From contig CAVOVX010000007.1 in NCBI GenBank assembly GCA_963699965.1, positions 14 to 64,013 of the forward strand: a stretch of DNA of 64,000 nucleotides, in the 5' to 3' direction. The stretch is from an uncultured Chloroflexia bacterium (GTDB taxonomy: Bacteria > Chloroflexota > Limnocylindria > Limnocylindrales > CSP1-4). Positions 8,640 through 30,964 of this stretch are shown here, one piece after another. Positions within the stretch are counted from its first letter, which is position 1. Each line of letters opens with the position of its first letter. A program made the translations under genes and the position numbers. The notes beneath the pieces are model-generated. The model had not been told where the DNA came from. It ran no database searches and saw only the letters and a program-made list of their open reading frames with translations.

Positions 8640-8644
8640 GTCTT

Positions 8645-8922: not shown

Positions 8923-8931
8923 CGACCCAGA

Positions 8932-8955: not shown

Positions 8956-9001
8956 CAAGTTCCCCCACCCTCGCCTCGGCGTGGTCCTTTGTCGTCCGTT
9001 G

Positions 9002-9015
9002 CGCAACCGATTTCT
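9002..9015. promoter_or_regulatory. Weaker copy (11/14, inverted orientation) of the LacI-type operator: CGCAACCGATTTCT, preceded by TTGCGCAA
   Basis: The reverse complement reads AGAAATCGGTTGCG and shares the AATCGGTTGC core with sites B and C. It lies 59 nt upstream of ATG 9074. Confidence 0.35.
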
Positions 9016-9073
9016 GGCGCACGTCCGGTTCGACTACGATCGGTCGCGACGAGCGCTTGACCGCGGAGGACAG

Positions 9074-10089
9074 ATGGCATCCCGGATCGGCCTGGCGATC
9101 ATTGGCGCCGGGCGGATGGGTCGCAACCACGCTCGGTTGATCGCGGCCGGCGTGCCCGAGCTGTCGATCGTCGCGATCGGCGACGTCGACGGCGCCGCAG
9201 CCGACCGTCTGGCCGACGAGATCGGGAGCGCGACGGGCTTCGCCGACCCGCTCGCCGCGATCGCGGCGCCGGGCGTCGACGCCGTGCTCATCGCAGTCTC
9301 TTCCGACCAGCATCGGCACGTCGTGGAGGCCGCCGCGGCCGCGGGCCGGGACATCCTGTGCGAGAAGCCGCTGGCGCTGACCTCGCGGGCACGGAGCGCG
9401 ATCGCGGCCGCGGAGCGGGCCGGGGTCCGCCTCCAGGTGGGGCTCATGCGGCGCTGGGACCCGGACTACGTCCGGGCGCGTGCCCGGATCGCGGCCGGCG
9501 ACCTCGGACGGCTGTTGCTCTTCACGCCGCTGCAGTACGACAGGGACCCTCCACCGCTCGCGATCCTCGACCCGGCGGTAGCGGCGGGATCATGCTCGAC
9601 ATGGGCATCCACGAGTTCGACCTAGCTCGGTTGCTGATGGGCGCCGAGGTCGTCGAGGTCCAGGCAACCGGCTCGATCGTCCAGGCCCCGAGACCGCCGC
9701 GTTCGGGGACGTCGACACCGCCGTGGTGAGCCTCCGGTTCGCCTCGGGCGCGATCGGGACCGTCGAGATGAGCCGCGGCGACGACGTACGGCGAGGACGT
9801 CCGGACGGAGGTCCACGGCACCGACGGGAGCGCGTTCATCGGCGGCCTGCCGATCGCTGGCGGGTCGGCGATCGGCCGGGAGGGCGGTATCAGCTGGGAT
9901 GCGACGTCGCCGTCGATGCCGCGCTTCGCCCCGGCTTACATCGACCAGGCACGCGCCTTCGGCCGGTCGATCCAGAACGATGAGCCGGTAAGCCCCTCCG
10001 GCGCCGATGGCCGCGCAGCCTTCGTCATCGCGATGGCTGCCTCGCGCGCCCTGCAGGAGGCGGGGACCGTGGCCGTTGACGTGGTGTAG
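9074..10089 (+). pseudogene. Gfo/Idh/MocA family oxidoreductase (inositol dehydrogenase-like), at least 4 frame breaks
   Basis: GGAGGA RBS then ATG 9074. MASRIGLAIIGAGRMGRNHARLIAAG...DAVLIAVSSDQHRHVVEAAAAAGRDILCEKPLALT / GGIMLDMGIHEFDLARLLMG / VVSLRFASGAIGTVEMSR / YGEDVRTEVHGTDGSAFIGG...ADGRAAFVIAMAASRALQEAGTVAVDVV, stop TAG at 10087. Confidence 0.7.
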
Positions 10090-10100
10090 CATCTCGTAGT

Positions 10101-10114
10101 TGCAAACGGTTGCA
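10101..10114. promoter_or_regulatory. LacI-type operator site A: TGCAAACGGTTGCA
   Basis: Fits the TGnAAnCGnTTnCA pattern exactly. It lies 25 nt upstream of the P450 GTG (10140), with GGAGGG at 10128-10133. Confidence 0.65.
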
Positions 10115-10139
10115 CGATCCACGACCGGAGGGCCACAGT

Positions 10140-11333
10140 GTGGCAACTCTCGATTCGCTGATGTCACCGGAGGCGCCGGTCCGGTGGGACCCGCTCCGGG
10201 TGGTCGACGATCCGTATCCGACCTATCGCCGGCTTCGCAACGAAGCACCCCTTTATCGGGACGAGGAGCGAGCGATCTGGGCTCTATCCCGCTTCGACGA
10301 CGTCCAGGCCGCGGCGCGGGACTGGAAGACGTTCTCGAGCAGCGAAGGCAACGATCACGACGACGGACACCAGCTGTTCGAGCCGGCGGGTGACGTCGCC
10401 GGGATCGATCCGCCCGACCACACGCGCTTACGCAAGGCCCTTCACAGTGCCTTCAGCCCGTCGGAGATCAGAGCCAGGTTCGAGCCGTCGGCTCGCCTCA
10501 AGGCGAGGAGCCTGATCGACGCGTTCGCCGATCTCGGCCGGGCCGATCTGGCGCGTGACCTGGCCAGGCCGCTCCCCGGCGCGATGGTCTGCACGTGGCT
10601 CGGCTTCCCGGAGGACGACCATCCGCAGCTGCTGGACTGGTTCGGGCACTTGCTCGACCGCGTGCCCGGCGAGCATGGGCTGCCGGCGTCCGCACTCGAA
10701 GCCCGAGACCGGATGCGCGCCTACGTCGAGGCAGCGGCGGCTGAGCGTCGGGTCGCGCCCCGCGCCGATCTGTTGACGGTGCTCGTCCAGGCCCAAGCCG
10801 ACGGCGCCATCAGCGGGGATGAAGTGCTCGGCTGCTCGCTGCTCCTCTTCCTGGCTGGCATCACGACCACATCTGGGCTGATCTCGAATTCGCTCCTTCA
10901 CCTCGACCGATTCCCCGACCAGCGCGAGCTCATGCGTCTCGAACCGGAGCGCATTCCGGCCGCGATCGAGGAGCTCCTTCGCTTCGAGGCGCCAATCCAG
11001 ACCCTGATCCGGACGACCTCGAAGGAGGTCGAGATGCATGGGACGATCATTCCCAGGGGTGCCCACGTGAGCCTCATCTGGGCGTCAGCGAACCGCGACG
11101 AGCGACGCTGGACGGATCCGGATCGGCTCGACATCGGGCGTGCGCCGGAGCGGCACGTCGCCTTCGGCGAAGGGATCCACCACTGCATCGGAGCGCCGCT
11201 CGCGCGCCTCGAGGCCCGGATCGCCTTCGAGGAGCTGTTCGCGCGGATCCCGACGTATGCCGTCACTGGACCGATCAGACGGGTCAGCACACCGACCGAT
11301 CGCGCCCTGGAGAGCCTGCCCGTGGAGTTCTGA
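10140..11333 (+). CDS. Cytochrome P450 (intact)
   Basis: Heme-binding loop FGEGIHHCIGAPLARLE, ExxR in EELLRFEAP, I-helix-like LLLFLAGITTTSG, N-terminal YPTYRRLRNEAPLYRDEE. The start is taken as the GTG 6 nt after GGAGGG. Confidence 0.9.
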   Translation: MATLDSLMSPEAPVRWDPLRVVDDPYPTYRRLRNEAPLYRDEERAIWALSRFDDVQAAARDWKTFSSSEGNDHDDGHQLFEPAGDVAGIDPPDHTRLRKALHSAFSPSEIRARFEPSARLKARSLIDAFADLGRADLARDLARPLPGAMVCTWLGFPEDDHPQLLDWFGHLLDRVPGEHGLPASALEARDRMRAYVEAAAAERRVAPRADLLTVLVQAQADGAISGDEVLGCSLLLFLAGITTTSGLISNSLLHLDRFPDQRELMRLEPERIPAAIEELLRFEAPIQTLIRTTSKEVEMHGTIIPRGAHVSLIWASANRDERRWTDPDRLDIGRAPERHVAFGEGIHHCIGAPLARLEARIAFEELFARIPTYAVTGPIRRVSTPTDRALESLPVEF

Positions 11334-11349
11334 GCGGACCGCCGCTCGC

Positions 11350-12216
11350 TCAGGCGGTCGTCGACGCGCCTTCCAGGAGCCCTCGGATCTGCTCGAACAT
11401 GAAGCGCGACGACTCCACGGCGCGCTCTTCCCAGGCGAAGACACAGCTCGTCAGGATCCCATCGAAGCCGACTCGCCGGAGCGCGTCGAAGCAGGCCACG
11501 AAGTCCACCTCGCCCTGGCCGATGTCGAGGTGCTGGTGGACGCGGGCCGGCGATCCGGGCGGGTTCACGATGTAGCGGTTGCCCGACGACGCCCGGTGGT
11601 TGAGCACGTCGGCGACGTGGACCTGGGTCAGGACGGGTGCGGCATAGTCGATCATCGCCCCGATGTCGTCGCCCAGGTAATAGGTGTGCGGCGCACAGAA
11701 CACGTAGCCGACGATCGGTGAGTCGATCCCTCGGACCAGGTCGACCGCCTCGGTGTTGCGCTCGATGAAGTCGTCCGGATGGGCCTCCAGGTTCAGCCGG
11801 ATCCCTTCCCGCTCGAAGATCGGCAGCAGCTCGTCCATCGAGCGCCAGAACTGCGCCTCGCTCCGGGCGGCCTGCTCCGGGCGACCGTTGAACTCGGAGT
11901 TCATGACCCCGCAGCCGACGTCGGCGGCGAGCTGGATCGCCCGCTTCCAGTAGCCGACGGCGGCCAGCCGCTCGTCTTCGTCCGGGCTCGACCAGCGGTA
12001 GAGGGGCAGGATCGACGCCAGCTCCATCCCCGTGTCGCGGAGCGCCGCCCGGAACTCCGCGACCTTGGCCCGATCCGCGCGCGGGTGCGTGAAGAACGGG
12101 ATGAAGTCAGGTCGTGGCGAGAGCTCGATCGAGTCGTAGCCGATGTCGGCTGCGATCCGACAGACCTCGGCGAACGGACGGTCGCGGAGCATGTACGGAT
12201 CGAGGGCGATCTTCAC
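11350..12216 (-). CDS. Sugar phosphate isomerase/epimerase (xylose isomerase-like TIM barrel), intact
   Basis: 288-aa ORF with IGYDSIELSP, MNSEFNGRP, RLNLEAHPDDF and HVHVADV..HLDIGQGEVDF. The start lies 2 nt downstream of the stop of the upstream large gene. Confidence 0.85.
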   Translation of the reverse strand: MKIALDPYMLRDRPFAEVCRIAADIGYDSIELSPRPDFIPFFTHPRADRAKVAEFRAALRDTGMELASILPLYRWSSPDEDERLAAVGYWKRAIQLAADVGCGVMNSEFNGRPEQAARSEAQFWRSMDELLPIFEREGIRLNLEAHPDDFIERNTEAVDLVRGIDSPIVGYVFCAPHTYYLGDDIGAMIDYAAPVLTQVHVADVLNHRASSGNRYIVNPPGSPARVHQHLDIGQGEVDFVACFDALRRVGFDGILTSCVFAWEERAVESSRFMFEQIRGLLEGASTTA

Positions 12217-12217
12217 G

Positions 12218-14823
12218 TCACGAGCTCTCCCGTTTGGCCGTACCGATCCGCCTGCGGAGGTCGGCTCCGCTCGCCGCGATCCGGTCCACCATCCGGGTCC
12301 GCTGAGCCGGGTCCGCGATGGTGGCCATGGAGTCCAGCCATCGTACGGTGCCGTCGATGACCGCGAGGATCGCCTCGGCGTCCGACGTGACGCACAGCGG
12401 CCGGTCGACGACCTCCACGTAGACCGGCGACGTATGGGCGGCCATGCTCGTGTTGTAGGCCGACCGGATCTCGTAGTCGCTGCGCGACCTGGCCGCGATC
12501 CAGGACCCCGCCGCGATGGAGATCTCGGCGGCGAGCTGGAGGTCGTCCGTCGCCCGGTCGACCGTTCGCTCGGCCACGACGCGACCGTTCACGACGAGCT
12601 CGACGGACCGGATGATCGATTGGGCCGCTCGAGCCCGGGCGTGCACGGTGAGCCGGCCGCCGCCCGCGGGCAGGACCAGGACGTCGCCGGGTTCGTGCCC
12701 ATCGACCGACAGCGCCAGCATCGGACCGGAGGTCGCAAACGTCCGTCCGGCACGAACCGCCGCGGACCAGGCGGCGAACGTCGCCGCCGCGTCGGGATCG
12801 AGCCGGGCGTAGGTCCGGATGGCGCCGACCGGCATCTCGGCCGACATCTTGTCGGTCCCACCCAGGACCGGCACCCGGTAGCCGCAATTGAGGAAGCGGT
12901 ACCACTCGCTGATCGACGGGTTGTCGAGGCCAGGAGCGAACGTCTGCATCTCGACGGCGTCGATCCGGCCGGCCACGATCTCGGCAGCGATCTCGGCGAA
13001 CGGCAACGGGAAGTGCGCCCCGACGACGAGGCCGCCCTCGGCGTGGCAGCGGTCCGCCCAGTCGCCGAGCAGCTCGGTGACGGCTCCCCCGATCCGGCCC
13101 TCGGGCCCGCCGCCCGAGGCGAGCGGAACGGTGGGCCGGCGCGCTCCGAGCAGGGCGAGATGGCCGAGCACGTTCTGGCGGTTCTCGGTCCCGACGATGA
13201 CGATGTGACGACCGTCGGGATCGGCCTGTGAGCCCCAGGCGAGGTCGGTGACGTTGGTGAACTCGTCGCCCAGCTGGGTCGCCAGCAGGTGGACGAACAC
13301 GACGTCCTCGGCGGCCGCCTGGAGGAGCGCCGTCGAGGGGGCCAGGAAGTGGACATGGGAGTCCGCGGAGCGCCAGCCGTCCGGCCGCAGATCGATCGCT
13401 CGCTCGAGCGCGACCGTGACGTCACGAGTCCCCGGCTCGACGACCAGCGTGCGACGCACAGGGCGGTGATCGAACCCCTTCACGACCTCGATCGCCACCT
13501 CGCCCAGCGGCAGGTCGATCGAGAACGCGCCGGGCACGTACGCGTAGGTGTCACCTCCGAGGATCAACCCGGCGCCAGAGTCCTCCAGGAGCCCCGGATT
13601 GATCTCCTCGCGGTGACCGAGCGGCGGCAGGTAGCGCCCGTCCGCGGCCACGAACCGCACCCGGGACGGCGTTGGCGCGTCGTCGGCCAGGATCCGGACG
13701 TCGACCCGGACCTCGGGCGTCGGCAGCGGACGGATCGTGATCCCGCCGTCCGGGCTCGTCGTCCGGGAGCCGAGCCCGGCGACCGCGACCTCCCAGTCGC
13801 CGAACGTCAGCCGCGCGTCGGGCGCTGCAGCGACGTCGAGGACTGTTCGCGCTGATCCGCCAGCTCGATTGGAGCCGTCGCGGGTGAGTGGCTCCGCGGA
13901 TCCCCAGCCGACCGGTCCACGGTCCGGGCCGTCGTCCGACCCGCGCGGCAGCGGGAGCGGTCGGGCCCCGATGGCGACCCCCAGGTCCACCTCGGGCAGG
14001 CCGTCTGCCGGGCCTTCGACCAGGAGCTGCCGGCGTGGCTCCAGGACGAGCGGGTCCGCGGTGCCCGCGAAGAGGGTCAGCGCCGCAAGGACGACCGCCG
14101 TGCCCGGACGGCCTCCGCCGAGCGGCACGAGACGCAGCTCGACCGGATCGCCATCGCCCAGCGGGATGGCGTGGAGCCAGTAGGTCGCGTCGTCGTCCGC
14201 GGTCGGGACGAAGTCGGCGATGCCCACCTGGGCAGCGCCCCACGAGCCGGGCAGCATCGCGAGCAGCCCGGCCTGGCCGGCGGCGACGCGGCGGCCCGGT
14301 TCCTGCCGTGGATGTGGGCCACGCCAGTCGAGCGTCTCGTCCGCCCGGTGACCGATCGCCGCGAACGGGATGAACCCCCAGCCGATGATCCCGTCTGCGA
14401 TCTCGAATTGACGGCGGATCTCGACGGCTCGGGTCGTGCCATCGGCGAACGTGATCGCGTACCGGGCGAGCCGCTCGCCGGTCGGCAGGACCCAGCCCAC
14501 GGGTGTTTCGGACGCTCGCTTCCCCGCGGCATCGCGCCAGCTGTCCGCGAAGTGGGCCACCACGAGGTGGCTGGCTCGGCCCTGACCCCGGAGGTCGATC
14601 GTCAGCTCGTCATCGAGGAGCAGCCAGCGCCGTCCCGCAGCCCGTCGTCCGAGCTCGAACGGGAGGCCCCGGAACACGACGGGGCCGTCGGGCAGCCGCG
14701 CCAGGGCGGACCGGTACGCGGATCGAGCCGTTCGCCCAATTCGGCATCGGACGCGTTCCACGCCGCCGACAGGTCCACCGGACGCGCCAGAGGCGTCGCG
14801 ATGCGGCCTCGCCCGATGGCCAT
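12218..14823 (-). CDS. Large (about 868 aa) uncharacterised protein, paralog 1. N-terminal half unknown; C-terminal metal-dependent hydrolase-like domain. One frame break near 14720.
   Basis: ATG 14823 (MAIGRGRIATPLARPVDLSAAWNASDAEL), then the 898-aa ORF frame. Motifs ADSHVHF, GTENRQNVLGHLALLG, VVGAHFPLP and GGTDKMS give an HxH...H...H...D pattern. About 50-70% identical to the gene at 27013-29588. Confidence 0.7.
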
Positions 14824-14879
14824 GGCTGCGACCCTCCCGACCGATATTGACGCGAGGAGAGTTGCGATGATACCTTCGT

Positions 14880-14893
14880 TGCAATCGGTTGCG
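14880..14893. promoter_or_regulatory. LacI-type operator site B: TGCAATCGGTTGCG, in the 83-bp divergent region
   Basis: 13 nt upstream of the iolD ATG (14907, RBS AAGGAGGG) and 56 nt upstream of the divergent large gene (14823). Overlaps the palindromic octamer TTGCGCAA (14889-14896). Confidence 0.65.
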
Positions 14894-14906
14894 CAAGGAG
14901 GGATCG

Positions 14907-16797
14907 ATGGACACCGTCCGGCTGACCGTGGGTCAGGCCATCGTCCGCTTCATGGCCAACCAGTACGCCGAACGAGACGGCCGCGAACAGCGCTTCATCG
15001 CCGGGGTCTGGGGCATCTTCGGGCACGGCAACGTCGCCGGCTTCGGCCAGGCCCTCGAGGAGCTCGGGGACGCCGAGGACATGCCCTACTACCGGCCCCA
15101 GAACGAGCAGGCCCAGGTCCATCTGGCGGCCGCGTTCGCGCGGCACAACAACCGCCTCCGGACATACGCCTGCACCTCGTCCGTCGGCCCGGGCGCGATG
15201 AACATGATCACCGGGGCTGCCGGCGGCGACCGTCAACCGGATCCCGGTGCTGCTCCTGCCGAGCGACTACTTCGCCAACCGGACGCCGGATCCCGTCCTC
15301 CAGCAGATCGAGCATCCGACCGAGCGCGACTTCGAGCGCCAACGACGCGTTCCGCCCGGTCTCCCGGTTCTTCGATCGGATCTCGCGTCCCGAGCAGCTG
15401 ATCGCCTCGCTGCCGGCGGCGTTTCGCGTGCTCACCGATCCGGCCGACACCGGGGCGGTCACGATCTCGCTGCCCGAGGACGTCCAGTCCGAGGCGTTCG
15501 ACTGGCCCGAGCGGTTCTTCGAGCGGCGGGTCTGGCGAGTTCGCCGACCGTTGCCTGAAGCGGCCGACGTGGCCGACGCGGTTCGCCTGATCCGGGCGTC
15601 GACGGCACCGGTGATCGTCGTCGGCGGGGGCGTGATCTACTCCGAGGCGACCGAGGCGCTGTCGGCGTTGGCGACGCAGTTCGGGATCCCGGTGGTCGAG
15701 ACGCAGGCTGGCAAGGGCGCCCTGCCCTGGAACCATCCAATGAATGCCGGCCCGGCGGGGACCAACGGCGGTCTGGCCGCCAACCGGCTCGCCCGCGACG
15801 CGGACCTGGTCATCTGCGTCGGGACGCGGATGGGCGACTTCGTGACCGCCTCACGCACGACGTTCCAGCACCCCGAGGCGAGGTTCATCGGCATCAACAT
15901 CGCGCCGATGGACGCCCACAAGCTGCGCGCGGTCCCGGTCGTGGCCGATGCCCGCGAGGCCCTGCGCGCGCTCGAGCGTGAGCTGGCGGCCGCCGGCTAC
16001 GCGGGGACCGCCGAACCGTATCGGCGGCGCGTCGCGGGGCTCAAGATGGAGTGGGACGACATCGTCACCAGCCTGCGAACGCGTGGATGGCGCTCCGGGC
16101 GATCTCGGCCAGGCCGAGGTCATCGGGATCGTGAACGACGTCGTGGGCGGTCACGCGACCGTGATCTGCGCCGCGGGCAGCCTGCCTGGTGACCTGCTCC
16201 GGCTGTGGCGACCCGAGGACCCCAAGGCCTACCACGTCGAATACGGCTTCTCGTGCATGGGCTACGAGATCGTGGCCGGGCTGGGCGTCCGGCTGGCCGA
16301 CCCGGATCGCGAGGTCGTCGTGATGGTCGGCGATGGCTCGTACCTGATGTTGAACTCCGAGATCGTCACCGCGGTCGCCGAGGGCCTCAAGCTCACGATC
16401 GTGGTCCTCGACAACCACGGGTTCCAGTGCATCCTCGCGCTCCAGCGGCTGGTCGGCGTGCCGGACTTCGGCAACGAGCTCCGCTTCCGCGACCGGTCGC
16501 GCAACCGGCTGACGGGCCCATACGTCCCGATCGACTTTCGGAAGCACGCCGAGGCGATGGGGGCCCTGGCGCCTCCAGGCGAACACGGCCGACGAGCTGC
16601 GCGCGGCGCTCGCCACGGCGCGCGCCGCCGATCGGATCGCGGTGATCGCGGTGCCCACCGAGCCGGAGAAGCGCGTCCCCGGCTTCGAATCGTGGTGGGA
16701 CGTCCCGGTGGCCGGTGCGAGCGAACAGGCCTCCGTCCGCGGCGCCCGGACGGCCTATGACGAGAAACGCCGCGAGCAGCGGACGGACATCCAGTAG
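14907..16797 (+). pseudogene. iolD: 3D-(3,5/4)-trihydroxycyclohexane-1,2-dione acylhydrolase IolD (ThDP enzyme), at least 4 frame breaks
   Basis: MDTVRLTVGQAIVRFMANQY...GIFGHGNVAGFGQALEE / [28 protein letters not shown] / [19 protein letters not shown]...VIVVGGGVIYS...ETQAGKGALPWNHP / GYEIVAGLGV..VVVMVGDGSYLMLNSEIVTA...LDNHGF / ...EKRVPGFESWWDVPVA, stop TAG at 16795. Confidence 0.85.
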
Positions 16798-16810
16798 ACA
16801 GGAGAAGCCC

Positions 16811-18049: not shown

Positions 18050-18065
18050 CCGTCGGCGGCGCGCC

Positions 18066-20947: not shown

Positions 20948-20973
20948 CAACGGAACTCCGTCAGGAGCGGTCG

Positions 20974-21816: not shown

Positions 21817-21863
21817 CCCGCGGTTCACAATGTTGACGTTGCGCAGGGCCGATGCTACGGTTG

Positions 21864-21877
21864 CGCAATCGGTTGCA
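21864..21877. promoter_or_regulatory. LacI-type operator site C: CGCAATCGGTTGCA, upstream of the lacI-family gene
   Basis: Preceded by TTGCGCAA (21861-21868) and followed by AAGGGG, then GTG 21887 / ATG 21899 of a short ORF. Confidence 0.6.
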
Positions 21878-22070
21878 GCACAAGGGGTGCGGTCCACGAT
21901 GCGTGCTTCTCCGCGCGATTTCGCTGCGGTCGAGGTCGCGTGGTCGGACGACCCGCGCTGCCATCGCGGCGGGTCGCCGCACCTGGCCCGCCAGCGGTCC
22001 GAGCTGGGCACCGGCGAAGATCGGCCCGACCGCGCCGTGCGCGTCGCGGTCTAGGCGGAGCCGCCGGCCC

Positions 22071-23153
22071 GTGCCATCCAGCGACGGCCAGCGCCGGACC
22101 GACGGTCAACACCGGACGGGCGGCCCGCGTCGTCGGATCCTCCTCAAGGATGTCGCCCAGCGAGCGAACGTCTCGGGCTCGACCGCGTCGCGGGCCCTGG
22201 CCGACGACAAGCGGATCAGCGCTGCCACCCGGCAGCTGGTCAAGGCCGCCGCCGCCGAGCTGCACTACGTGCCGGATGCGACGGCCCGCAGCCTTCGGGT
22301 CCGGCGGACTCGGACGCTGGGTCTCCTCCTGCCCGACCTGCGCGACCCGGTCCACGGCCAGGTCGCGTCGGCGTTCGAGCAGGAGGCGCGCCAGCAGGGG
22401 TACGTCGTGATGGTCGTGGCTGGCGAACGCGACCTCGCGCGCGAGCGGCTCGCCTTGAGGGCCTTTGCCGAGCACGGGACCGATGGGGTTGCGGTCGTGT
22501 CCGGCGTGTTGCCGCCGAACGAGCTGCGCGAGCGGGTCGATCCCGACCGGCTCGTCCTCGTCTGGCCCGACCATCGGAGCCTGCCTCGACACGCTGGCCC
22601 TAACGTCCCGGGCGTCATCCAGACCGATGACGCGAGCGGCGTGCGGGCTGCGGTTGACCACCTGGTCGACAGCGGCTGCCGGCGGGTCGCCTATGCCGAG
22701 AGCGGGCGGCGCGCCTCGAACACGATCCGAGCCGAGACCGTCGCCGCGACCCTCCGCGATCGAGGCATCCGCGCTCCGCTGCGCAGGTTCCCCGCCCCGG
22801 TCGATTCGTGGCGGGCACCCGCGGCGCTCGCTGCGGAGATCGCTGCGGACCCCCCCGAGGCCCTCGTCTGCTACGACGACCAGCTCGCGCTCGGGCTCAT
22901 GGACGCGCTCCGTGGCCTGGGCGTCCGGATCCCCGACGACATGGGCATCGTCGGGTTCGACGGGATCCCCTTTGCCGCCATCTCGAACCCCCGGCTGACG
23001 ACCGTGGTGGTTCCGTCGGCGGAGATGGGCCGGGCTGCGGCGTCGTCGGCGATCCAGGCCGTACACGACGGCCGGCTGCCGGACGGCGTGCTGTTGCCGG
23101 TCGAGATGGTCGTCCGCGAGAGTACCCGGGTCGTGTCCGTGAGCCGTCCATGA
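22071..23153 (+). CDS. LacI family transcriptional regulator (intact core; start uncertain)
   Basis: HTH ILLKDVAQRANVSGSTASRALADDKRISAATRQLVKAAAAELHYVPDATARSLR, then a periplasmic-binding-fold effector domain. The start is taken as the in-frame GTG at 22071 with GGAG upstream. The ORF track opens at 21852. Confidence 0.85.
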   Translation: MPSSDGQRRTDGQHRTGGPRRRILLKDVAQRANVSGSTASRALADDKRISAATRQLVKAAAAELHYVPDATARSLRVRRTRTLGLLLPDLRDPVHGQVASAFEQEARQQGYVVMVVAGERDLARERLALRAFAEHGTDGVAVVSGVLPPNELRERVDPDRLVLVWPDHRSLPRHAGPNVPGVIQTDDASGVRAAVDHLVDSGCRRVAYAESGRRASNTIRAETVAATLRDRGIRAPLRRFPAPVDSWRAPAALAAEIAADPPEALVCYDDQLALGLMDALRGLGVRIPDDMGIVGFDGIPFAAISNPRLTTVVVPSAEMGRAAASSAIQAVHDGRLPDGVLLPVEMVVRESTRVVSVSRP

Positions 23154-23208
23154 TCGTCGACCGCCGGCCGCGGATGCCGACCGAGCTCCGCCTCGCCCGG
23201 TCGTTCCG

Positions 23209-24106
23209 TTGCCGCTGACACCGGATGGGGGCGTCGACCCCGGGGTCGACCTGGCCGACCTCGCCCGGCGCGGCCGGCTGCTCGTGATCGACTCGGTCGC
23301 GCACAGCGGTGCCGGGCACATCGGCGGCCCGCTATCCGCGATGGACCTCCTCGTCGCGCTCTACTTCAGGGTCCTGCGCATTCGTCCGGACGCACCCGAC
23401 TGGCCTGACCGCGATCGGTTCATCCTGTCGAAGGGCCACTCCGCGATCGGACTCTACGTGGTCATGGCCCTGCGCGGCTACTTCCCGGTCGAGGAGCTCG
23501 CGACCTTCGATGCGGGTGACAGCCGGCTGCAGGGGCACCCCGACATGACGCGGCTACCTGGGCTCGAGGCATCGACGGGTTCGCTCGGCCAGGGCCTCGC
23601 CGTCGGGCTCGGGATCGCCCTCGGAGCCCGCCTGCGCGGGCTCGGGTTCCACACGTTCGTGATGCTCGGCGACGGCGAGACCCAGGAAGGGATGGTCTGG
23701 GAGAGCGTGATGGTCGCGGCCAAGTACGGGCTCGGCAATCTCACCGCGATCGTCGACTGCAACGGCCTCCAGCAGTACGGCTGGCCGCCGGTGCCGGGCG
23801 AGGATGCGCGCGGCGACCGACGCGACCCGCTCGCCGGGACCCGCCTCCGCGACGCCCTCGAAGCCTTCGGCTGGCGGGTCCTGGAGATCGACGGGCACGA
23901 CCATGAGGCGATCGTGGCCGCCTGCGAGGACGCTCGCGGCGCTGGCCGGGCCGGCCGGCCGACGGCGATCCTGGCGGCAACCGTCAAGGGGCGGGGATTG
24001 TCGTTCACGGAGGGTCGCACCGAGTGGCACGCGCGCGTGGCGACGGCCGACGACGTTGCGGCGGCCCGAGTCGGAGCTCGGTCTCGCCGAGGACGCCGGG
24101 TCGTGA
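23209..24106 (+). CDS. Transketolase, N-terminal (ThDP pyrophosphate-binding) section. As written it is fused to the C-terminal section; a 1-nt shift near 24065 restores a stop at 24104.
   Basis: HSGAGHIGGPLSAMDLLVALYF, ILSKGHSAIGLYV, RLQGHPD, STGSLGQGLAVGLG, MLGDGETQEGMVWES, DCNGLQQ. The alternative frame ends ...ELGLAEDAGS-TGA. Confidence 0.75.
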
Positions 24107-25071
24107 CCCGCCCGATGCGTGACGCGTGGGCGGAGACCCTGCGCGAGCTGGCCGTCGACAACCCCGACCTGCTCGTCCTCGACGGCGACCTCGCCTCGTC
24201 GACCCGAGCCGATCGGTTCGCCGCCGCCCATCCGGACCGGTTCCTGCAGATGGGCATCGCCGAGCAGAACCTGGTCGGGGTGGCGGCCGGCCTGGCGACC
24301 CTGGGTTACGTTCCGTGGCTGTCGTCGTTCGCCGTGTTCTTCACCCATCGCGCGATCGACCCGATCAGGATGCTCGTCGCCCAGACCCATGCCAACGTCA
24401 AGATCGGTGCGGCGTACACGGGCCTCCTGACCGGCTTCACCGGGAAGACACACCAGGACGTCGAGGACCTCGCGATCATGCGGGCGATGCCGGGCATGAC
24501 GGTCATCGCCCCGTGCGATGCAAGCGAGTGCGTGGCGGCCGTGAGATGGGCGACCGAGACCCAGGGACCGGTCTATCTCCGCCTGGCGCGCGATGCGGGC
24601 CCGGACGTCTTCGACGACGCCTACCGGTTCGAGCCGAGCCGGGTCATCCGATTGCGCACCGGGTCCGACGTCCTGTTGGTCTCGACCGGTGTCCAGACGA
24701 CGCGGACCCTCGAGGCGGCCGCGATCCTCGCGTCGAGGGGGATCTCGGCCGGCGTCCTCCACGTCCCCTGCCTGAAACCGGTCGATGCGGACGCGATCGC
24801 CGAGGCGGGACGCGGCGTCCCGCTCGTCGTCACGACCGAGGAGCACACGGTCCTGGGCGGTCTCGGCGGGCTGGTCGCCGAGATCCTCGGCGAGCGCGCG
24901 CCGCGCCGGCTCGCGCGGATCGGGATCGCCGACACCTGGGGCGAATCGGCCCCAAACGCCTTCCTGCTCGACCGGCACGGGCTGTCGGCGGAGCGCGTCG
25001 CGGAGCGCGTGGCGCTCGAGCTGTCGCAGGTCGAGCTCGTCGAGGGTGCCGCAAGCGAGTCCGGACGATAG
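24103..25071 (+). CDS. Transketolase, C-terminal (pyrimidine-binding plus C-terminal domain) section
   Basis: GTG 24103 (overlapping the TGA) or ATG 24115. MRDAWAETLRELA, RFLQMGIAEQNLVGVAAGLA, GKTHQDVEDLAIMRAMPGMTVIAPCD, VTTEEHTVLGGLGG. Confidence 0.75.
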   Translation: MTRPMRDAWAETLRELAVDNPDLLVLDGDLASSTRADRFAAAHPDRFLQMGIAEQNLVGVAAGLATLGYVPWLSSFAVFFTHRAIDPIRMLVAQTHANVKIGAAYTGLLTGFTGKTHQDVEDLAIMRAMPGMTVIAPCDASECVAAVRWATETQGPVYLRLARDAGPDVFDDAYRFEPSRVIRLRTGSDVLLVSTGVQTTRTLEAAAILASRGISAGVLHVPCLKPVDADAIAEAGRGVPLVVTTEEHTVLGGLGGLVAEILGERAPRRLARIGIADTWGESAPNAFLLDRHGLSAERVAERVALELSQVELVEGAASESGR

Positions 25072-25087
25072 CGGTCGAGGAGATCAG

Positions 25088-26132
25088 ATGAGCGGATTCA
25101 GGGTGAAGAACCCGAGCAGCATCGGCGTCGCGTTCCTCGGCGTCGGACGGATCGGAACGTCCCACCTCCGGACGCTGGCCGGGATCGGCAACGCCCGGAT
25201 CGTCGTCGTCGCAGACCTGGATCCCTCGGAAGCCGAGCGCGGGCGGGAGATCGGGCGCGCCGAGCGGGCCACCGCCGATGCCCTCGACGCGATCGGCGAC
25301 CCGGCCGTCGAGGCCGTCGTCATCGCGACGCCGACCAGCACGCACGCGGGCCTCATCGAGGCGGCGCTGCGCGCCGGCAAGGCGATCTGGAGCGAGAAGC
25401 CGATCGCCCTCGACCTCGCCGAGACGACTCGCGTCGTCGAGCTCTGGCGCGAGACCGGCCTGCCGGTCCAGATGGGGTTCATGCGCCGGTTCGACCCTGG
25501 CTACGTTCGGGCCAAGGAGCTCATCGAGTCGGGGGAGCTGGGCCGCGTGGAGCAGTTCCGTGCCTATTCACGCGACACCTACCCGCCGCCGCCCAAGTTC
25601 ATCCGCGACAGCGGCGGGTCGTTCCTCGACATGAGCGTCCACGACTTCGACCTGGCCCGGTTCCTCGTCGGCGAGGTCGAGGAGGTGTCCGCCTGGGGCA
25701 GCAACATCATCGACAAGCGGTTCGAGGAAGGCGGCGACGTGGATACCGCGGTGACCATGCTCCGCTTCCGCAACGGTGCCCTCGGGGTGGTCGAGATGTC
25801 GCGCCGCTCCGCGTGGGGGTACGACATCCGGACCGAGGTCGCCGGCGCGCTCGGGCAAGGTCGTCGTCGAGGCCGCCCACAAGACGCCGCTGACCTGGTC
25901 GCGTCGGTTCGGCTTCGAGGGCGATCACTACGAGAACTTCCCCGATCGGTTCGAGGTCGCCTACCGGCTCGAGTTCGAGGCGTTCTTCCGAACCCTGGCC
26001 GAAGGCGGCACGCCGACGCCCGGGCCCGAGGAGGCCCTCGAGACGCTCCGACTCGCCCTCGCCGCCAAGCGGAGCTGGCTGGAAGGGCGGCCGGTCCGGG
26101 TCGACGAGGTCGCGGCCGGGGTGGATCGATGA
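25088..26132 (+). CDS. Gfo/Idh/MocA family oxidoreductase (inositol 2-dehydrogenase-like), one frame break near 25855
   Basis: IGVAFLGVGRIGTSHLRTL, AVVIATPTSTHAGLIEAALRAGKAIWSEKPIAL, GGSFLDMSVHDFDLARFLVG, then VVVEAAHKTPL...YRLEFEAFFRTLAEGGTPTPGPEEAL. Confidence 0.75.
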
Positions 26133-26967
26133 GCCCCGCCGTGACCCGCCACCTGCGCCCCAGGGGCAGTCTGGGGACGCATCCTCGAGATCACGCCGGA
26201 GAGCATCGGCTGGCGATACCTGTCGTTCCGGGTGCGTCGCCCTGGGACCCGGCGAGACGGTCGATGCCGACACGGGTGAGACCGAGGTCGCGCTGGTCCC
26301 GCTCGGCGGTTCCGGCTCGTTCACGTTCGGGGGCGCGACGTACCCGATCTCCCGCCGGGACGTGTTCAGCGAGAAGCCGCACGTCCTCTACCTGCCGCCG
26401 CGATCGGCGTTTGCGATCCGCGCCGAGGAGGCGTTCGAGGTCGCGATCGGGGCGGCTCCGGCCGTCGGTCGTTATCCCGCCCGCCTGTACCTGCCGGGCG
26501 AGCTGCCGAGCTTCGTCCGCGGCGGCGCCAACGTGAGCCCGCGGGGTGACCGCGACCCTCGATCCCGGGTTCCCGTCAGAGCGGCTCATCGCCTACGAGA
26601 TCCTCACCCCGAGCGGCAACTGGTCGAGCTTTCCGCCACATCGCCACGACGGTCGGTTCGGGACGACCTACCACGAGGAGACCTACTACTACCGGCTCTC
26701 ACCACGCGATGGCTTCGCGATCCAGCGCCTGTACACCCGCGACACCGAGCTCGACGTCTCGATTGCGGCGGCCGACGGCGACCTGGTGCTCGTCCACGAG
26801 GGCTATCCATACGGTCGCGACGGCGCCGGGGACAAACGCCTACTACCTCAACTTCCTCGCCGGTGACTCCAAGCCCGTGGTCCAGCTCAACGACCCGGCC
26901 TACGACTGGATCGTCGAGGACTGGGCAGGGCGGCCGATCGGCGATTCCGCTCGAACCGGCGACCTGA
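26129..26967 (+). pseudogene. Second IolB-like 5-deoxy-glucuronate isomerase paralog, at least 5 frame breaks
   Basis: The ATG overlaps the upstream stop (ATGA). ILEITPESIGWRYLSFRV / GETEVALVPLGGSGSFTFGG..DVFSEKPHVLYLPP / ERLIAYEILTPSGNWSSFPPHRHD..EETYYYRL..VLVHEGYP / GTNAYYLNFLAGD...DWAGRP / AIPLEPAT stop at 26965. Confidence 0.7.
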
Positions 26968-27012
26968 CCCGGGTTGCCGAGGGTGCGCGCCCCCGGCCGG
27001 GCCGGACCCGAG

Positions 27013-29588
27013 TCACCGGTCCAATCCACTGCGGCGACGGCGGAACGTCTCGAGGCTGGCGTCGAAGAAGCGCACCATCCGGGCGCGATCGGCCGGCTCC
27101 TGCACGGCCGCCAGCTCGGCGACCCAGGTCCTGGCGCCGGCGATGACCTGCTCGACCACGTCGCCTCCGCCGCCGGCGCGACGAGCGGCCGATCCTCGAC
27201 CTCGACGTAGACCGGCGACGTATGGGCCGCCATCGACGTCGCGAAGGCAGACCGGATCTCGGCCGGCTTCGCGACCGGGCGGCGATCCAGGCGCCGGCCG
27301 CGATCTCGACGGTCTCGTGGAGCGTCAGCTCGGCGGCGTCGGGCGAGCTCGTGGCCGCGACGACCCGCCCGTTGACGACCAGCTCCAGGTCGCTGAGCAC
27401 GGCCTGGGCGGCCCGCGCCCGGGCCACGACCTCGAGCCGGCCGCTCGATCGCAGCCGGATCACGTCGCCTGGCTCGTGGCCCTCGACCGTCAGCTCGAGG
27501 ATCGGACCCGAGGTGACGAAGGTCCGACCCGCTCGGACGGCCGACGCCCACGATTCGAACGTGAGCGGGCCGTCAATCTGAAGGTGACCGTAGGTGCGGA
27601 CCGCCCCGATCGGGACCTCGGCCGACATCTTGTCGGTCCCGGCCACCACCGGGAGCCGGTAGCCGAGGTTGAGGAAGCGGTACCACTCGAGCACGGACGG
27701 GTCGTCGAGCCCGGGCGCCAGCGCCTGCGTCTCGATCGCGTCGATCTTGCCGGCGACGATGTCGGCGGCGATCTCCGCGTAGGGCAGCGGGAAGTGGGCC
27801 GCGACGACGAGCCCCCCGGCCGCCCGGCAGCGATCCGCCCAGTCGGCCAGCAGGACGCCCAGGGCGCCGCCCAGCCGGCCCTCGGGCGGACCGCGCTGGC
27901 GAACGGGATCACCGGCCGGTGAGCGCCGAGCAGGGCCAGGTGGCCGAGCATGTTCTGGCGGTTCTCGGTCCCGACGACCACCATCCGGCGACCCGATGGG
28001 TCGGCCATCGAGCCCCACGGCAGGTCGGTCACGTTCGTGTACAGGTCGCCCCACTGGGCGGCGAGCAGGTTCACGAGGTCGACGTCCTCGGCCGCCGCCT
28101 GGAGGAGGGCGGTCGAGGGCGCCAGGAAGTGGACGTGGCTGTCGGCGGTGACCCAGCGCCCGCCGTGCAGGTCGATCGTCCGGTCGAGCGGGAGCTCGAG
28201 GTGGCCGGTCGACCGGTCGACCTCGATCCTGCTGCGATGCGGTGCCCGGTCGAACCCGCCGACGACCTCGACCTCGACCGCGCCGACCGGCAGCTCGATC
28301 GCGAACCGGCCCGGGACGTAGGCATAGGCCGACGATCCCAGGATGAGATCGCCACCGGTGTCCTCGTAGAACCCCGGGTTGACCTCGTCGCGATGGCCGA
28401 CCGGCGGCAGGTAGCGACCGTCGGCGGCGGTGAACCGGACCCGGCCGGGCACGCGTTCGCCGGTCGTGCCGTCCACGATCTCCACCTCGACCGGCACCCG
28501 CGCCGGCCGGAGGACCTCGATCGATCGCCGGCGGCCGGGGTCGTACAGCGGCGCTCCCGCCAGGAGGTCCGGCCCGGGGACGTCCCAATCGTCCAGGGTC
28601 AAGATCGCGTCGGGTGACAGCGCGAGGTCGACGAGGCTGGATCCGGGTCTCGCCGCCTCTGGATCGGCACGGGCCGTTCCCCATCCGACGATCTCCCCGC
28701 CTGGCTCGCCGGCCGGCAACGGCGCCGGGGCGGGCAGGGTACGGATGATCGTGCCGAGGTCGACATCCGGCGGACGCCCGTCGAGGCCGCCGATCCGGAC
28801 CTGGAGCCGCGGACCACGGGCGAGCGGGTTGGCGGATCCGCGGAACAGGGTCACCGCCGCCACGATCAGGTCGCTCCCCGGCCGGCCGCCGGCCAGTGGT
28901 TCAAGCCGGAGGGCGACCGGTTCGGAACCGGCGTCGAGCTCGATCGCGTGGAGCCACAGCAGGGCATCGTCGGTTGGGCTCGGGACGTAGTCGGACATGC
29001 CCACCTGGTTTCCGCCGTACGTTCCCGGCATGATGGTCAGGGACCCGGACTGACCGGTCGCGGCGTAGCGGCCGGGTCCCTGGGCGGCATGCGGCCCGCG
29101 CCAGTCGAGGATCTCGTTCTCCAGGTGCGGGATCGCGGCAAACGCGCCCGAGCCCCAGCCGAGGATGCCGTCGTTGACCTCGAACCGGCGCCGGATGATC
29201 CGGCTCGTCGTCCGTCCCGTCCGGTCGACGATCGTGTAGCGGGCGAGCGGCTCGCCGACCGGGACGACGTGCCCGACCGCCAGCCCGGCCGGTCTCGCTC
29301 CCAGCATCGTCCCGCCACGCATCGCACAGGTGGGCCACGACGACGTGGCTGGCGGCCCGCCAGCCGGCAGGTCGACGGCTGTCGTCTCCGTCGAGGAGGA
29401 TCCAGCGCTCGGCGTCCGGCGTCCGGTCCGAGCTCGAACGGCAGGCCGTGGAAGACGCGGCGCCCGGCTGGCAGGCGAGCCAGCGCCGGCCCGTACTGGG
29501 CGTGGAACCGGGCAGCGACCTGCCGCTCGGTTGCGTTCCGAACGGGACCGAGATCGACCGTCCTGGCGAGCGGGCTCGCGCGTCCCAT
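27013..29588 (-). pseudogene. Large (about 858 aa) uncharacterised protein, paralog 2, same architecture as 12218-14823; at least 5 frame breaks
   Basis: MGRASPLARTVDLGPVRNATERQV..RLPAGRRVFHGLPFELG / ERWILLDGDD..VVAHLCDAWRDDAG / ...RVRFTAADGRYLPPVGHRDEVNPG..ADSHVHFLAPSTALLQAAAED..GTENRQNMLGHLALLG / VVAAHFPLPYAEI..AGTDKMSAE / SMAAHTSPVYVEVEDRPL / VVEQVIAGARTWVAEL..FRRRRSGLDR stop at 27013. Confidence 0.7.
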
Positions 29589-29654
29589 CAGGCTCGCTTC
29601 GGGCGCTCGGAGCGAGCTCTGTATTGACGCGTCATGGGCCGGACGCTAGCATCG

Positions 29655-29668
29655 TACAAACGGTTGCA
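29655..29668. promoter_or_regulatory. LacI-type operator site D: TACAAACGGTTGCA, in the 95-bp divergent region
   Basis: 12 nt upstream of GTG 29681 / ATG 29684 (RBS AAGAGGG) and 66 nt upstream of the divergent large gene start (29588). TAGCAT at 29647-29652 is a possible -10. Confidence 0.6.
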
Positions 29669-29683
29669 CAAGAGGGTGCCGTG

Positions 29684-30928: not shown

Positions 30929-30964
30929 CGCAGGTCCGACACGCGGACGATGGAAGGGACTGGA

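Follow-up and report, generated by a model that had tools for sequence, protein, structure and literature searches.

A conserved CG-centred palindrome marks the promoters of an inositol/aminocyclitol-type gene cluster and suggests local control by a LacI-family regulator in an uncultured soil Chloroflexota bacterium

The window analyzed here, a 64,000-nt stretch of DNA from an uncultured soil Chloroflexota bacterium, carries a gene cluster for inositol or aminocyclitol breakdown with a recurring palindrome at its promoters. Its relevant features are given below; putative operators were scored with a weight matrix trained on related loci and genomes only, the window being left out.

8232-8939, minus strand: VOC/glyoxalase-family gene
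9002-9015, minus strand: probable fifth, weaker operator, AGAAATCGGTTGCG (18.2 bits)
9074-11333, plus strand: frameshifted Gfo/Idh/MocA dehydrogenase gene (9074-10089), then cytochrome P450 (10140-11333)
10101-10114, plus strand: putative operator A, TGCAAACGGTTGCA (21.6 bits), 25 nt ahead of the P450 gene (GTG 10140)
11350-14823, minus strand: unit presumably driven from the B region, comprising large paralog 1 (12218-14823), with a C-terminal CehA/McbA metallohydrolase domain (NF038032, 148 bits), and a TIM-barrel gene beside it (11350-12216, minus strand)
14847-14876, plus strand: iolD promoter, -35 TTGACG (14847-14852), 18-nt spacer, TG-extended -10 TACCTT (14871-14876)
14867-14896, minus strand: candidate large paralog 1 promoter, -35 TTGCGC (14896-14891), 18-nt spacer, -10 TATCAT (14872-14867)
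14880-14893, plus strand: putative operator B, TGCAATCGGTTGCG (27.8 bits)
14908-21816, plus strand: B operon (Pfam, NCBIfam and tblastn mapping), with iolD (14908 to about 16797, frameshifted here), a DegT-type aminotransferase (16811-18049), iolC and iolB (18066-19952, run together here through a frameshift), a LacD-type aldolase (ORF 19904-20947) and a xylose-isomerase-like TIM barrel (20974-21816)
21833-21861, plus strand: lacI promoter, -35 TTGACG (21833-21838), 17-nt spacer, TGC-extended -10 TACGGT (21856-21861)
21864-21877, plus strand: putative operator C, CGCAATCGGTTGCA (26.1 bits), ahead of lacI and its leader sORF
21899-22054, plus strand: leader sORF (MRASPRDF..., 51 codons) that separates operator C from lacI
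22071-23153, plus strand: LacI-family regulator gene (360 aa; helix-turn-helix and periplasmic-binding-protein-like domain)
23209-26960, plus strand: rest of the C operon, with a transketolase whose N and C halves are joined here through a 1-nt indel at 24073, an iolG-like dehydrogenase (25088 to about 26120; IolG model 337 bits versus a cutoff of 355) and a second KduI/IolB-family gene (about 26130-26960, frameshifted)
27000-29588, minus strand: large paralog 2, of about 860 aa and frameshifted in this window (end approximate), with a CehA/McbA metallohydrolase C-terminal domain
29624-29652, plus strand: ABC-operon promoter, TTGACG-17-TAGCAT
29643-29671, minus strand: candidate large paralog 2 promoter, -35 TTGTGC (29671-29666), 17-nt spacer, TG-extended -10 TAGCGT (29648-29643)
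29655-29668, plus strand: putative operator D, TACAAACGGTTGCA (28.6 bits)
29682-37033, plus strand: D operon (several genes frameshifted in the window), with a leader ORF or N-terminal extension from 29682, a PotA-type ATPase (potA subfamily, 358 bits; conserved start at about 29828), a PotD-like SBP_bac_6 binding protein followed by two permeases to about 33965, a luciferase-like monooxygenase (34018-35052), a Zn-ADH (35082 to about 36100) and an IolE-like TIM barrel (36164-37033; IolE model 161 bits, below cutoff)

It is of note that a 94%-identical relative is free of the 1-nt frameshifts seen in many genes of the window. The B operon genes are intact in two related loci (L161/L162), and the orthologs in a third (L002) score 904 bits for IolD, 260 for IolB and 258 for IolC with the NCBIfam models. 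The regulator at 22071-23153 is the only LacI-family gene in the window; it carries the Pfam domains LacI, Peripla_BP_1 and Peripla_BP_3, matched no NCBIfam equivalog, and has E. coli PurR as its closest solved structure (E = 8e-28).

The preliminary description had reported four strong copies of a 14-bp LacI-type palindrome, and their positions and sequences all proved correct. Within the 64 kb of this genome on which the counts rest, TGCAAWCGGTTGCA occurs four times with at most one mismatch (at 10101, 14880, 21864 and 29655) against a chance expectation of 0.2, all four copies being intergenic and on the same strand as the downstream operon. With up to two mismatches there are five matches in four places versus 0.19 expected, a number reached in none of 100 shuffled windows, and the looser LacI pattern TGNAANCGNTTNCA finds the same four places at one mismatch or fewer (0.20 expected). 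The matrix scores of 21.6 to 28.6 bits compare with a mean maximum of 10.2 bits in shuffled windows. The palindrome is even with a central CG; across 48 distinct sites its core AAWCGGTTGC is invariant and the full form is TGCAAnCGnTTGCA. A weaker inverted copy had also been proposed at 9002-9015, between the VOC/glyoxalase-family gene and the Gfo/Idh/MocA gene that precedes the P450, and its minus-strand score of 18.2 bits makes it probably a real operator. On the other hand, the half-site proposed at 39744-39757 is noise, its 8.4-8.7 bits being a score at which 2.2 hits per shuffle are to be expected. The octamer TTGCGCAA, which had been noticed at three of the sites, occurs exactly three times (8999, 14889 and 21861; 0.2 expected) and is only the outer flank of the 9002 site, B and C; operators D and A lack it.

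The strong sites lie close to the predicted starts of transcription. Operator B begins 3 nt past the iolD -10 and operator D 2 nt past that of the ABC operon, whose promoter was the sole promoter-like match of a consensus scan of 22100-36200. Operator A has a likely -10 nearby (TAGCAT, 10087-10092) and no well-spaced -35, the latter counting against the main reading. A start codon was said to follow each site by 12-26 nt with a GGAGG-like RBS in between, and this is roughly the case, with 25 nt at A, 14 nt at B, a GTG at 9 nt and an ATG at 21 nt at C, and 13 or 16 nt at D; however, the first starts after C and D open short leader ORFs and not lacI (GTG 22071) or the ABC ATPase (about 29828). 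The leader sORF stops 16 nt ahead of the lacI GTG. Among relatives its start and first codons, (M/V)RA(S/G), are conserved at lengths from 6 to 55 codons, and in the closest relative, in which the sequence of operator A is identical, an in-frame 93-nt deletion leaves start and stop in place. The short divergent regions described around B and D were borne out: the former spans 84 nt from the start of large paralog 1 on the minus strand (14823) to the iolD ATG (14908), and the latter 93 nt from that of large paralog 2 (29588, also minus strand) to the importer operon. Operator B falls in the -35/spacer of the candidate paralog 1 promoter, which we propose because of its sequence, the invariant GATGATA and GCGCAA blocks and the 84-nt intergenic geometry. 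The candidate paralog 2 promoter, suggested by its sequence and the conserved block, overlaps operator D.

This arrangement recurs in about 40 genomes or loci of Candidatus Limnocylindrales (Chloroflexota) with regulators 63-95% identical, in which the motif is found at three orthologous promoters, those of iolD, lacI and the PotABCD-type ABC importer, beginning 2-5 nt past a conserved TTGACG-17/18-TAnnnT promoter whose geometry is kept while spacers diverge. For example, the fetched loci contain 33 copies of the operator B 14-mer, about 25 of which are of the B type, upstream of iolD orthologs; TTGAC lies 33 nt ahead of the site in 23/24, and the block TTGACG...GATGATACC.TC..TGCAAT is conserved among 24 unique orthologous sequences. 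The lacI ortholog has a counterpart of operator C in about 40 loci (TTGACN-17/18-TACGGT in 32/39 sites, TGC ahead of the -10 in 33/39, gap to the site 2-5 nt). There are 30 unique orthologous D-type copies of nnnAAACGGTTGCA, with a nearly invariant promoter block in these 30 orthologs, and the downstream gene order is repeated in many related loci. A large paralog starts divergently within 200 nt of 23/24 B-type and 27/31 D-type sites. The motif also precedes about a third of the P450 orthologs (12/37 with readable upstream sequence), 30-70 nt upstream of the gene and in both orientations, which fits a symmetric dimer, and one locus (L080) has TTGACG-18-TAGCGT and then TGCAATCGATTAGG upstream of a fused gfo-P450 operon. 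In 795 kb of related loci, the same loci on which the matrix was trained, hits of at least 16 bits occur only at promoters of this cluster: 93/96 are on the operon strand with TTGAC at most 42 nt upstream, and the remaining three are promoter-proximal too, just upstream of lacI. More distant regulators (30-47% identity, from Ilumatobacteraceae, Rhizobiaceae, Mesorhizobium and Arsukibacterium) also have GCAAnCGnTTGC sites ahead of their own genes. In more distant relatives the operator is followed by the aminotransferase and then by lacI.

We therefore consider it likely, on the strength of comparative sequence analysis, that the LacI-family transcription factor encoded at 22071-23153 uses the palindromes as its operators, and that the cluster is a well-supported but ordinary sugar-type regulon. 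As family knowledge suggests, a dimer would contact each palindrome, centred on CG, with its N-terminal helix-turn-helix and its hinge helices. Judged from its position 2-5 nt past the -10 hexamer, the operator would cover roughly +1 to +16, and therefore the bound protein should block RNA polymerase, acting as a repressor rather than an activator. Without inducer, the regulator would repress its own gene along with five or six transcription units. The targets would include the operon in which it lies (leader sORF, lacI, transketolase, iolG, iolB2), as the operator ahead of lacI implies; the operon for iolD, aminotransferase, iolC, iolB, aldolase and TIM barrel; the PotABCD-type importer operon, probably on through the monooxygenase, ADH and IolE-like genes; and the P450 gene, probably with the preceding Gfo gene. 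At B and D a single operator probably serves both divergent promoters, including those of the CehA/McbA-type hydrolase genes, since in intergenic regions of only 84 and 93 nt the bound dimer should also overlap both hydrolase promoters. A cyclitol-derived ligand in the sugar-binding domain would release the repressor; an aminocyclitol or its catabolite is a reasonable guess because of the tightly linked aminotransferase and polyamine-type importer. The local LacI/GalR-type regulon of the preliminary description, with C ahead of the only lacI and autoregulation implied, is thus supported in every computational test run. The single control unit it drew is too small, the ABC operon very probably continuing through the monooxygenase, Zn-ADH and IolE-like gene to 37033, and the lacI-transketolase operon also holds iolG and the second iolB/KduI gene. 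Further sites may exist elsewhere in the genome, or the regulator may have a more global role.

Some features are at odds with this reading and bear on the alternatives. The operators could be real but recognized by a different LacI-family protein whose gene lies elsewhere in the genome, either a cre/CcpA-like global regulator or a paralog, with the local lacI just one of its targets; the generic cre/LacI pattern TGNAANCGNTTNCA does accommodate the motif, and the genome is seen over 64 kb. Some relatives (L030, L033, L035 and L037) even have a second LacI paralog, 53-57% identical, behind the same motif, where the assignment of paralog to site is ambiguous and counts against the main reading. 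We regard this explanation as unlikely, since the motif accompanies lacI orthologs in about 40 genomes, and likewise distant ones at 30-47% identity, is confined to promoters of this cluster in 795 kb of related DNA, and is accompanied by a single LacI gene in the window. Also counted against control by the local LacI protein are the degenerate left half-sites of D-type copies and, at B, C and D, an asymmetric centre (WCGG) in one fixed orientation to transcription, which recognition by a symmetric dimer would not need. This fixed orientation of the asymmetric 4-nt centre, together with a position downstream of the -10 and hence in the transcript, would suit a 5-bp hairpin at the 5' end before the RBS that acts on mRNA stability or translation. 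Such an RNA-level role is nevertheless very improbable: none of five pairs shows compensatory change among the 48 distinct sites, covariation does not reach the shuffle mean, pairing is broken by one-sided changes such as those in D-type left halves, the hairpin is unused in minimum free energy folds of the four 5' regions (z-scores -1.3 to +0.8), and P450-associated sites occur in both orientations. Given the lack of compensatory changes and of any Rfam match, the behaviour of the palindrome is that of a protein operator. A promoter cassette duplicated inside the cluster, its palindrome functionless, would explain why B, C and D share TTGACG and similar extended -10 boxes, but hardly why spacers and flanks diverged between orthologs while AAWCGGTTGC stayed invariant in 48 distinct sites, or why the motif precedes lacI in distant phyla with unrelated promoters, and can be all but dismissed.

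The proposed operator recognition by the local LacI protein is also in agreement with known systems. PurR, the best structural homolog (e.g. 1jh9/2pua) at only about 25% identity, aligns over the helix-turn-helix and hinge regions. It needs a corepressor (purines) and controls biosynthesis, whereas the catabolic context here suggests an inducer-released repressor. In PurR a leucine from the hinge helix inserts into the central CpG step, and its operator ACGCAAACGTTTGCGT has what we take to be the same GCAA-CG-TTGC core as the window motif. Regulons of LacI-family IolR proteins with CG-centred palindromes have been described before: in the comparative genomics study by Ravcheev et al. 2014 (PMC4052901), sites of this family are typically even and have CG at the centre, and inositol use is controlled by seven LacI orthologous groups under the name IolR. 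As in those regulons, the regulator lies inside an inositol catabolic cluster with its own site at the regulator gene, and the promoter-region operators are even and CG-centred, a likeness of general form. Unlike them, the present cluster also includes an aminotransferase, a P450, a PotABCD-type importer, CehA/McbA hydrolases and a transketolase; Candidatus Limnocylindrales lies outside that study, which treats Chloroflexi as one taxonomic group and, in the text consulted, names only Chloroflexus. Bacillus subtilis IolQ (DegA), a LacI-family repressor of the cyclitol dehydrogenase gene iolX, binds from +4 to +30 of iolX (PMC5504672), just downstream of the transcription start as here, at a CG-centred imperfect palindrome, AGAAARCGCTTKCK, whose half-site differs from that of the window motif. 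IolQ controls one main promoter and does not bind the yisR-iolQ promoter region (PMC5504672), whereas here at least five promoters, including that of the regulator, carry the site. FixV-type LacI regulators of Mesorhizobium and Rhizobium, which adjoin the mocDEF genes for catabolism of rhizopine (3-O-methyl-scyllo-inosamine), likewise link a LacI/GalR-family regulator to TIM-barrel 'epimerase' genes and inosamine-type cyclitol catabolism, although FixV is reported as a nifA2 activator (PMC3538637) and so differs from the repressor proposed here. No moc genes were identified beside the Mesorhizobium homologs of the window LacI (39-40% identity; L067, L068), whose own genes are preceded by TGCAAGCGGTTGCG-type sites.

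The preliminary description placed four strong copies of a palindromic operator at 10101, 14880, 21864 and 29655 (sites A, B, C and D, before the P450 gene, iolD, lacI and the ABC importer operon), and all four are present exactly as reported. A search with TGCAAWCGGTTGCA allowing up to two mismatches finds these four places, all on the + strand (0.19 expected), a count reached in none of 100 shuffles, and the generic LacI pattern TGNAANCGNTTNCA with at most one mismatch finds the same four in a window of 70.5% G+C. With a weight matrix built from related genomes alone, and thus independent of the window, D scores 28.6, B 27.8, C 26.1 and A 21.6 bits, and the inverted copy at 9002-9015 scores 18.2 bits, far above the mean best score of 10.2 bits in shuffled windows. 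All operator sites are intergenic and lie, above chance, in promoter regions of presumed target genes. The supposed half-site at 39744-39757 scores 8.4-8.7 bits, a level reached 2.2 times per shuffle, and was rejected as noise. With CG at its center, the operator is a palindrome of even length, TGCAA-W-CG-G-TTGCA; its core AAWCGGTTGC (columns A6, A7, C9, G10, G11, T12, T13 and G14) is invariant in 48 distinct sites, its flanks vary, and its ±2 positions are asymmetric, as the LacI family pattern allows. The octamer TTGCGCAA, described as overlapping or abutting three of the sites, does occur in three copies (8999, 14889 and 21861); found only as the outer flank of three sites, it was rejected as an independent element, and at B it may also serve the divergent promoter as a −35-like hexamer. 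Assigned with Pfam and NCBIfam, the genes around the sites form the following units.

9074-11333, + strand: upstream pair, with a Gfo/Idh/MocA gene (9074-10089), site A and the P450 gene (10140-11333)
11350-14823, minus strand: unit left of B, with the large paralog 1 (12218-14823) and a TIM barrel gene (11350-12216)
14908-21816, + strand: B operon, with iolD, a DegT-type aminotransferase, iolC, iolB, a LacD-type aldolase and a TIM barrel gene
21899 to about 26960, + strand: C operon, with a 51-codon leader ORF, lacI, transketolase, an iolG-like gene and a second KduI/IolB gene
about 27000-29588, minus strand: unit left of D, the large paralog 2
29682-37033 (whole operon), + strand: D operon, first part, with a PotA-type ATPase, a PotD-like binding protein and two permeases
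within 29682-37033, + strand: D operon, remainder, with a luciferase-like monooxygenase, a Zn-ADH and an IolE-like gene

The operons are longer than first stated, and the complete D-operon gene order is repeated downstream of D in many relatives. The window carries probable frameshift artefacts. Many genes are broken (iolD, iolC/iolB, both Gfo genes, paralog 2 and all four ABC genes), the frameshifted stretches being 9074-10089, 14908-16797, 18066-19952, 24073, 25088-26960, 27000-29588 and 29682-36100, and the apparent transketolase fusion (620 aa) arises from a single 1-nt indel at 24073. Pseudogenization is disfavored by the intact genes in a close relative (contig L161/L162, 93-95% identical), which are intact in the short-read MAG L002 as well, and by the differences being isolated 1-nt indels with no accumulation of stops; the frameshifts are more likely assembly errors, probably of long-read origin. 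They leave the operator sites untouched. As an exception, the Gfo gene before the P450 gene is split in L161 too.

An alignment of the regulator was used to scan one genome per species and yielded 79 loci, which were then compared for the motif. In about 40 Limnocylindrales loci whose regulators are 63-95% identical, it occupies three orthologous positions and keeps site-specific variants, TGCAATCGGTTGCG before iolD, [C/T]GCAATCGGTTGCn before lacI and nnnAAACGGTTGCA before the ABC ATPase; sites are kept at orthologous genes where the orthologous regulator is present, as expected of a regulog, which supports the proposal that they define a regulon. Across 795 kb of related loci, 93 of the 96 matrix matches of at least 16 bits share the strand of the operon and have TTGAC at most 42 nt upstream, the other three, directly before lacI, are promoter-proximal too, and coding DNA has no match; the matrix was trained on those very loci, and the informative part is that there are no matches elsewhere. 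More distant regulator orthologs (30-47% identity), from Ilumatobacteraceae, other Chloroflexia, Rhizobiaceae, Mesorhizobium and Arsukibacterium, have GCAAnCGnTTGC sites before their own genes, and in still more distant relatives the gene order is operator, aminotransferase and lacI, with the aminotransferase directly between the other two (L028 8696-9961, L034 1800-3060, L020 14158 and L039 8684).

The sites are embedded in a recurrent promoter architecture, TTGACG-17/18-TAnnnT, and begin 2-5 nt past the conserved −10 box, so that the operators would span roughly +1 to +16, where steric repressors classically bind. Among relatives, the block at iolD (B-type) reads TTGACG, 17-18 nt, GATGATACC.TC, the site, CAAGGAG and the iolD ATG, the block at lacI (C-type) reads TTGACN-17/18-(TGC)TACGGT with the site after 2-5 nt, and the block at the ABC ATPase (D-type) reads GTATTGACGggcCATgggcCgGACGCTAGCATCG, the site and CAAGAGGG. 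A consensus promoter scan independently calls the D promoter, TTGACG-17-TAGCAT at 29624-29652, and does not call the B and C promoters, which have weaker −10 boxes and are supported by conservation. In contrast to the spacers of the B and C promoters, that of the D promoter (17 nt, GGCCATGGnCCGGACGC, 29630-29646; D-type sites in L001-L071) is nearly as conserved as the hexamers. The cause may be overlap with the divergent promoter or 5′ UTR of paralog 2, or binding of a second factor. The start of a divergent large paralog gene lies at most 200 nt from 23 of 24 B-type and 27 of 31 D-type sites, and the intergenic regions in the window measure 84 nt (B) and 93 nt (D), so that the paralog promoters must overlap the forward promoter and operator; plausible candidates for these reverse promoters, read by eye, are TTGCGC-18-TATCAT (B) and TTGTGC-17-TAGCGT (D). 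At each of the two divergent regions, a single operator would then shut two overlapping back-to-back promoters.

Start codons do follow the sites closely, as first noted, but those after C and D open leader ORFs. The ORF between operator C and lacI (21899-22054) keeps its start and first codons, (M/V)RA(S/G), in most relatives, ranges from 6 to 55 codons, overlaps the TTG start of lacI with its stop in some genomes and, in the closest relative, carries a 93-nt in-frame deletion that retains both start and stop; translational coupling of lacI to the leader peptide is suggested. After operator D (29682-29830 in the window), an RBS and start codon are found in all relatives and open an ORF of 8-54 codons whose sequence is not conserved and which often ends near the ATPase start; in the window it reads in frame into the ATPase, and the RNA fold of this 186-nt leader is no better than shuffles (z = −0.72).

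Because the sites lie where they would be transcribed, with the orientation of B, C and D fixed and an asymmetric center (WCGG), they might instead be read as an RNA hairpin or riboswitch. This reading was rejected, as none of the five pairs has changed in a compensatory way, covariation falls short of the shuffle mean, one-sided changes break the pairing, predicted folds of the four 5′ regions lack the hairpin and do not exceed shuffles in stability, and the P450-associated sites occur in both orientations; an Rfam search of 8800-30200 gave no match. Protein recognition of the conserved bases would explain the site data, and the fixed orientation of B, C and D is most simply the inheritance of entire promoter-operator modules. 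The motif also fits the cre pattern. Global cre/CcpA control would be marked by many sites scattered among catabolic operons of unrelated function, to which CcpA binds together with HPr-Ser-P; in the window and the 795 kb of related DNA, the motif is confined to this cluster.

The protein presumed to act at these operators, the product of 22071-23153, combines an N-terminal HTH of LacI type with an effector domain resembling periplasmic binding proteins (Pfam PF00356, PF00532 and PF13377), and aligns full-length to the structures of PurR, RbsR and CcpA, of which PurR is the nearest; an NCBIfam search found no equivalog that fits it. The PurR operator has a GCAA-CG-TTGC core in common with that of the window. 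As the preliminary description held, this is the only LacI-family gene in the window; hundreds of close homologs exist (best 95% identical), and the named ones come from Chloroflexota/Candidatus Limnocylindrales MAGs. The great majority of LacI-family sites are even palindromes centered on CG, and seven LacI orthologous groups named IolR are already known to control inositol use (PMC4052901); IolQ of B. subtilis is an experimentally characterized LacI-family repressor of a cyclitol dehydrogenase gene that binds iolX from +4 to +30 (PMC5504672). With minor corrections, the interpretation first given is supported: the system is most probably a local LacI-family repressor whose CG-centered operators overlie the transcription starts in a cyclitol catabolic island. 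Rhizobial FixV-type LacI regulators adjoin genes of rhizopine (O-methyl-inosamine) catabolism (PMC3538637), and Mesorhizobium homologs of the window's regulator (39-40% identity) have similar sites. The search for a link to FixV/moc gave no support for orthology to FixV, the best plasmid matches being generic LacI genes, 35% identical, beside glycosidases; Pfam on the neighbors of the Mesorhizobium homolog, where the choice of ORFs was possibly poor, was uninformative. L030 and L035 (same MAG), L033 and L037 have a second LacI paralog (53-57% identity) with the TGCAATCGGTTGCG site before it as well, and in these genomes two regulators may share one operator type.

The proposed membership of the P450 gene is backed by its metagenomic orthologs, 12 of 37 of which (about a third of those with readable upstream DNA) carry a TGCAAnCGnTTGCA-type site of at least 14 bits, with weaker copies (11-14 bits) in six more. 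These sites lie 30-70 nt upstream, just past a TAGCAT or TACGAT −10 box, in either orientation, and in two loci (L021 and L071) the P450 gene has its own site inside the same cluster. In L080, the Gfo and P450 genes overlap and a promoter with a weaker site precedes Gfo, matching the weak 9002 site of the window. The latter is adjoined by genes for a MarR-family regulator (7723-8217, +) and a VOC/glyoxalase-family protein (8232-8939, minus).

As in an IolR-type regulon, the presumed targets belong to myo-inositol catabolism (reference set iolG, E, D, B, C, J); the aldolase in the B operon is LacD-type, not IolJ. The L002 orthologs of IolD (904 bits, cutoff 715) and IolB (260, cutoff 205) score above the NCBIfam cutoffs, whereas IolC (258 versus 300), IolG (337 versus 355) and the IolE-like protein (161 versus 290) fall just below or below. 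A cyclitol is the likely substrate, given canonical iolD, iolB and iolC and iolG-like and iolE-like genes, and the tightly linked DegT-family aminotransferase, polyamine-type importer, P450 and two cytoplasmic CehA/McbA-type hydrolases suggest an amino- or otherwise modified one. For the effector, an amino-cyclitol is hinted at by the aminotransferase and the PotD-type binding protein. Within the cluster, the DegT-type aminotransferase (16811-18049) shows the highest conservation, with 93% identity between the window and L002, and its best solved homolog is the Kdo8N transaminase KdnA (5k8b, 5e-78), not an inosose aminotransferase; 2-deoxy-scyllo-inosose aminotransferases match it near 1e-45. 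The two paralogs (12218-14823 and about 27000-29588, both minus) are about 860 aa each and lack a signal peptide; the C-terminal CehA/McbA (PHP-like) metallohydrolase domain is their sole assigned part, the N-terminal ~480 aa being beta-sandwich-rich and without family assignment. Among the matches listed, all homologs are from close relatives, the named ones from Chloroflexota/Limnocylindrales. A Foldseek search of the PDB with an AlphaFold2 model of one paralog (P0121, mean pLDDT 68) gave no meaningful fold match; the TM scores, to GH2 enzymes and complement C3, were only about 0.1.

It is conceivable, though we consider it rather unlikely, that the regulon controls an undescribed catabolic route for an amino-cyclitol or conjugated cyclitol in Limnocylindria. 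The substrate would be taken up through the polyamine-type (PotABCD-like) importer, released or deprotected by the two CehA/McbA-type metallohydrolases and the P450, deaminated by the KdnA-like aminotransferase, the most tightly linked gene of the regulator in distant relatives, and passed to the IolE/D/B/C pathway, with a transketolase step; the ligand of the LacI protein would be the amino-cyclitol or a product of it. No new regulatory mechanism is involved, as LacI-family repressors of inositol catabolism with CG-centered palindromes are well described. The main interest is a conserved, well-defined regulon, and the unassigned enzymes that it groups, in an uncultured lineage of soil bacteria: Limnocylindria are an abundant uncultured soil class, and Candidatus Limnocylindrales are widespread soil Chloroflexota without a cultured model. 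The operator, promoter architecture and probable repressor provide a clean, testable regulatory map of a conserved catabolic island, and the association places two large CehA/McbA-type hydrolases, a P450, a KdnA-like aminotransferase and a split transketolase in cyclitol metabolism. With its effector identified, the operator-repressor pair could be built into a biosensor.

Beyond the D operon, a second cyclitol- or sugar-like gene set (37098-41905, minus) has no operator; it encodes a TIM barrel protein, a transaldolase, a class-III aminotransferase resembling glutamate-1-semialdehyde aminomutase, and a Gfo/Idh/MocA dehydrogenase whose best model, levoglucosan dehydrogenase, is matched below cutoff. 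An AlkZ-like DNA glycosylase gene lies farther downstream (45323-46444, minus).
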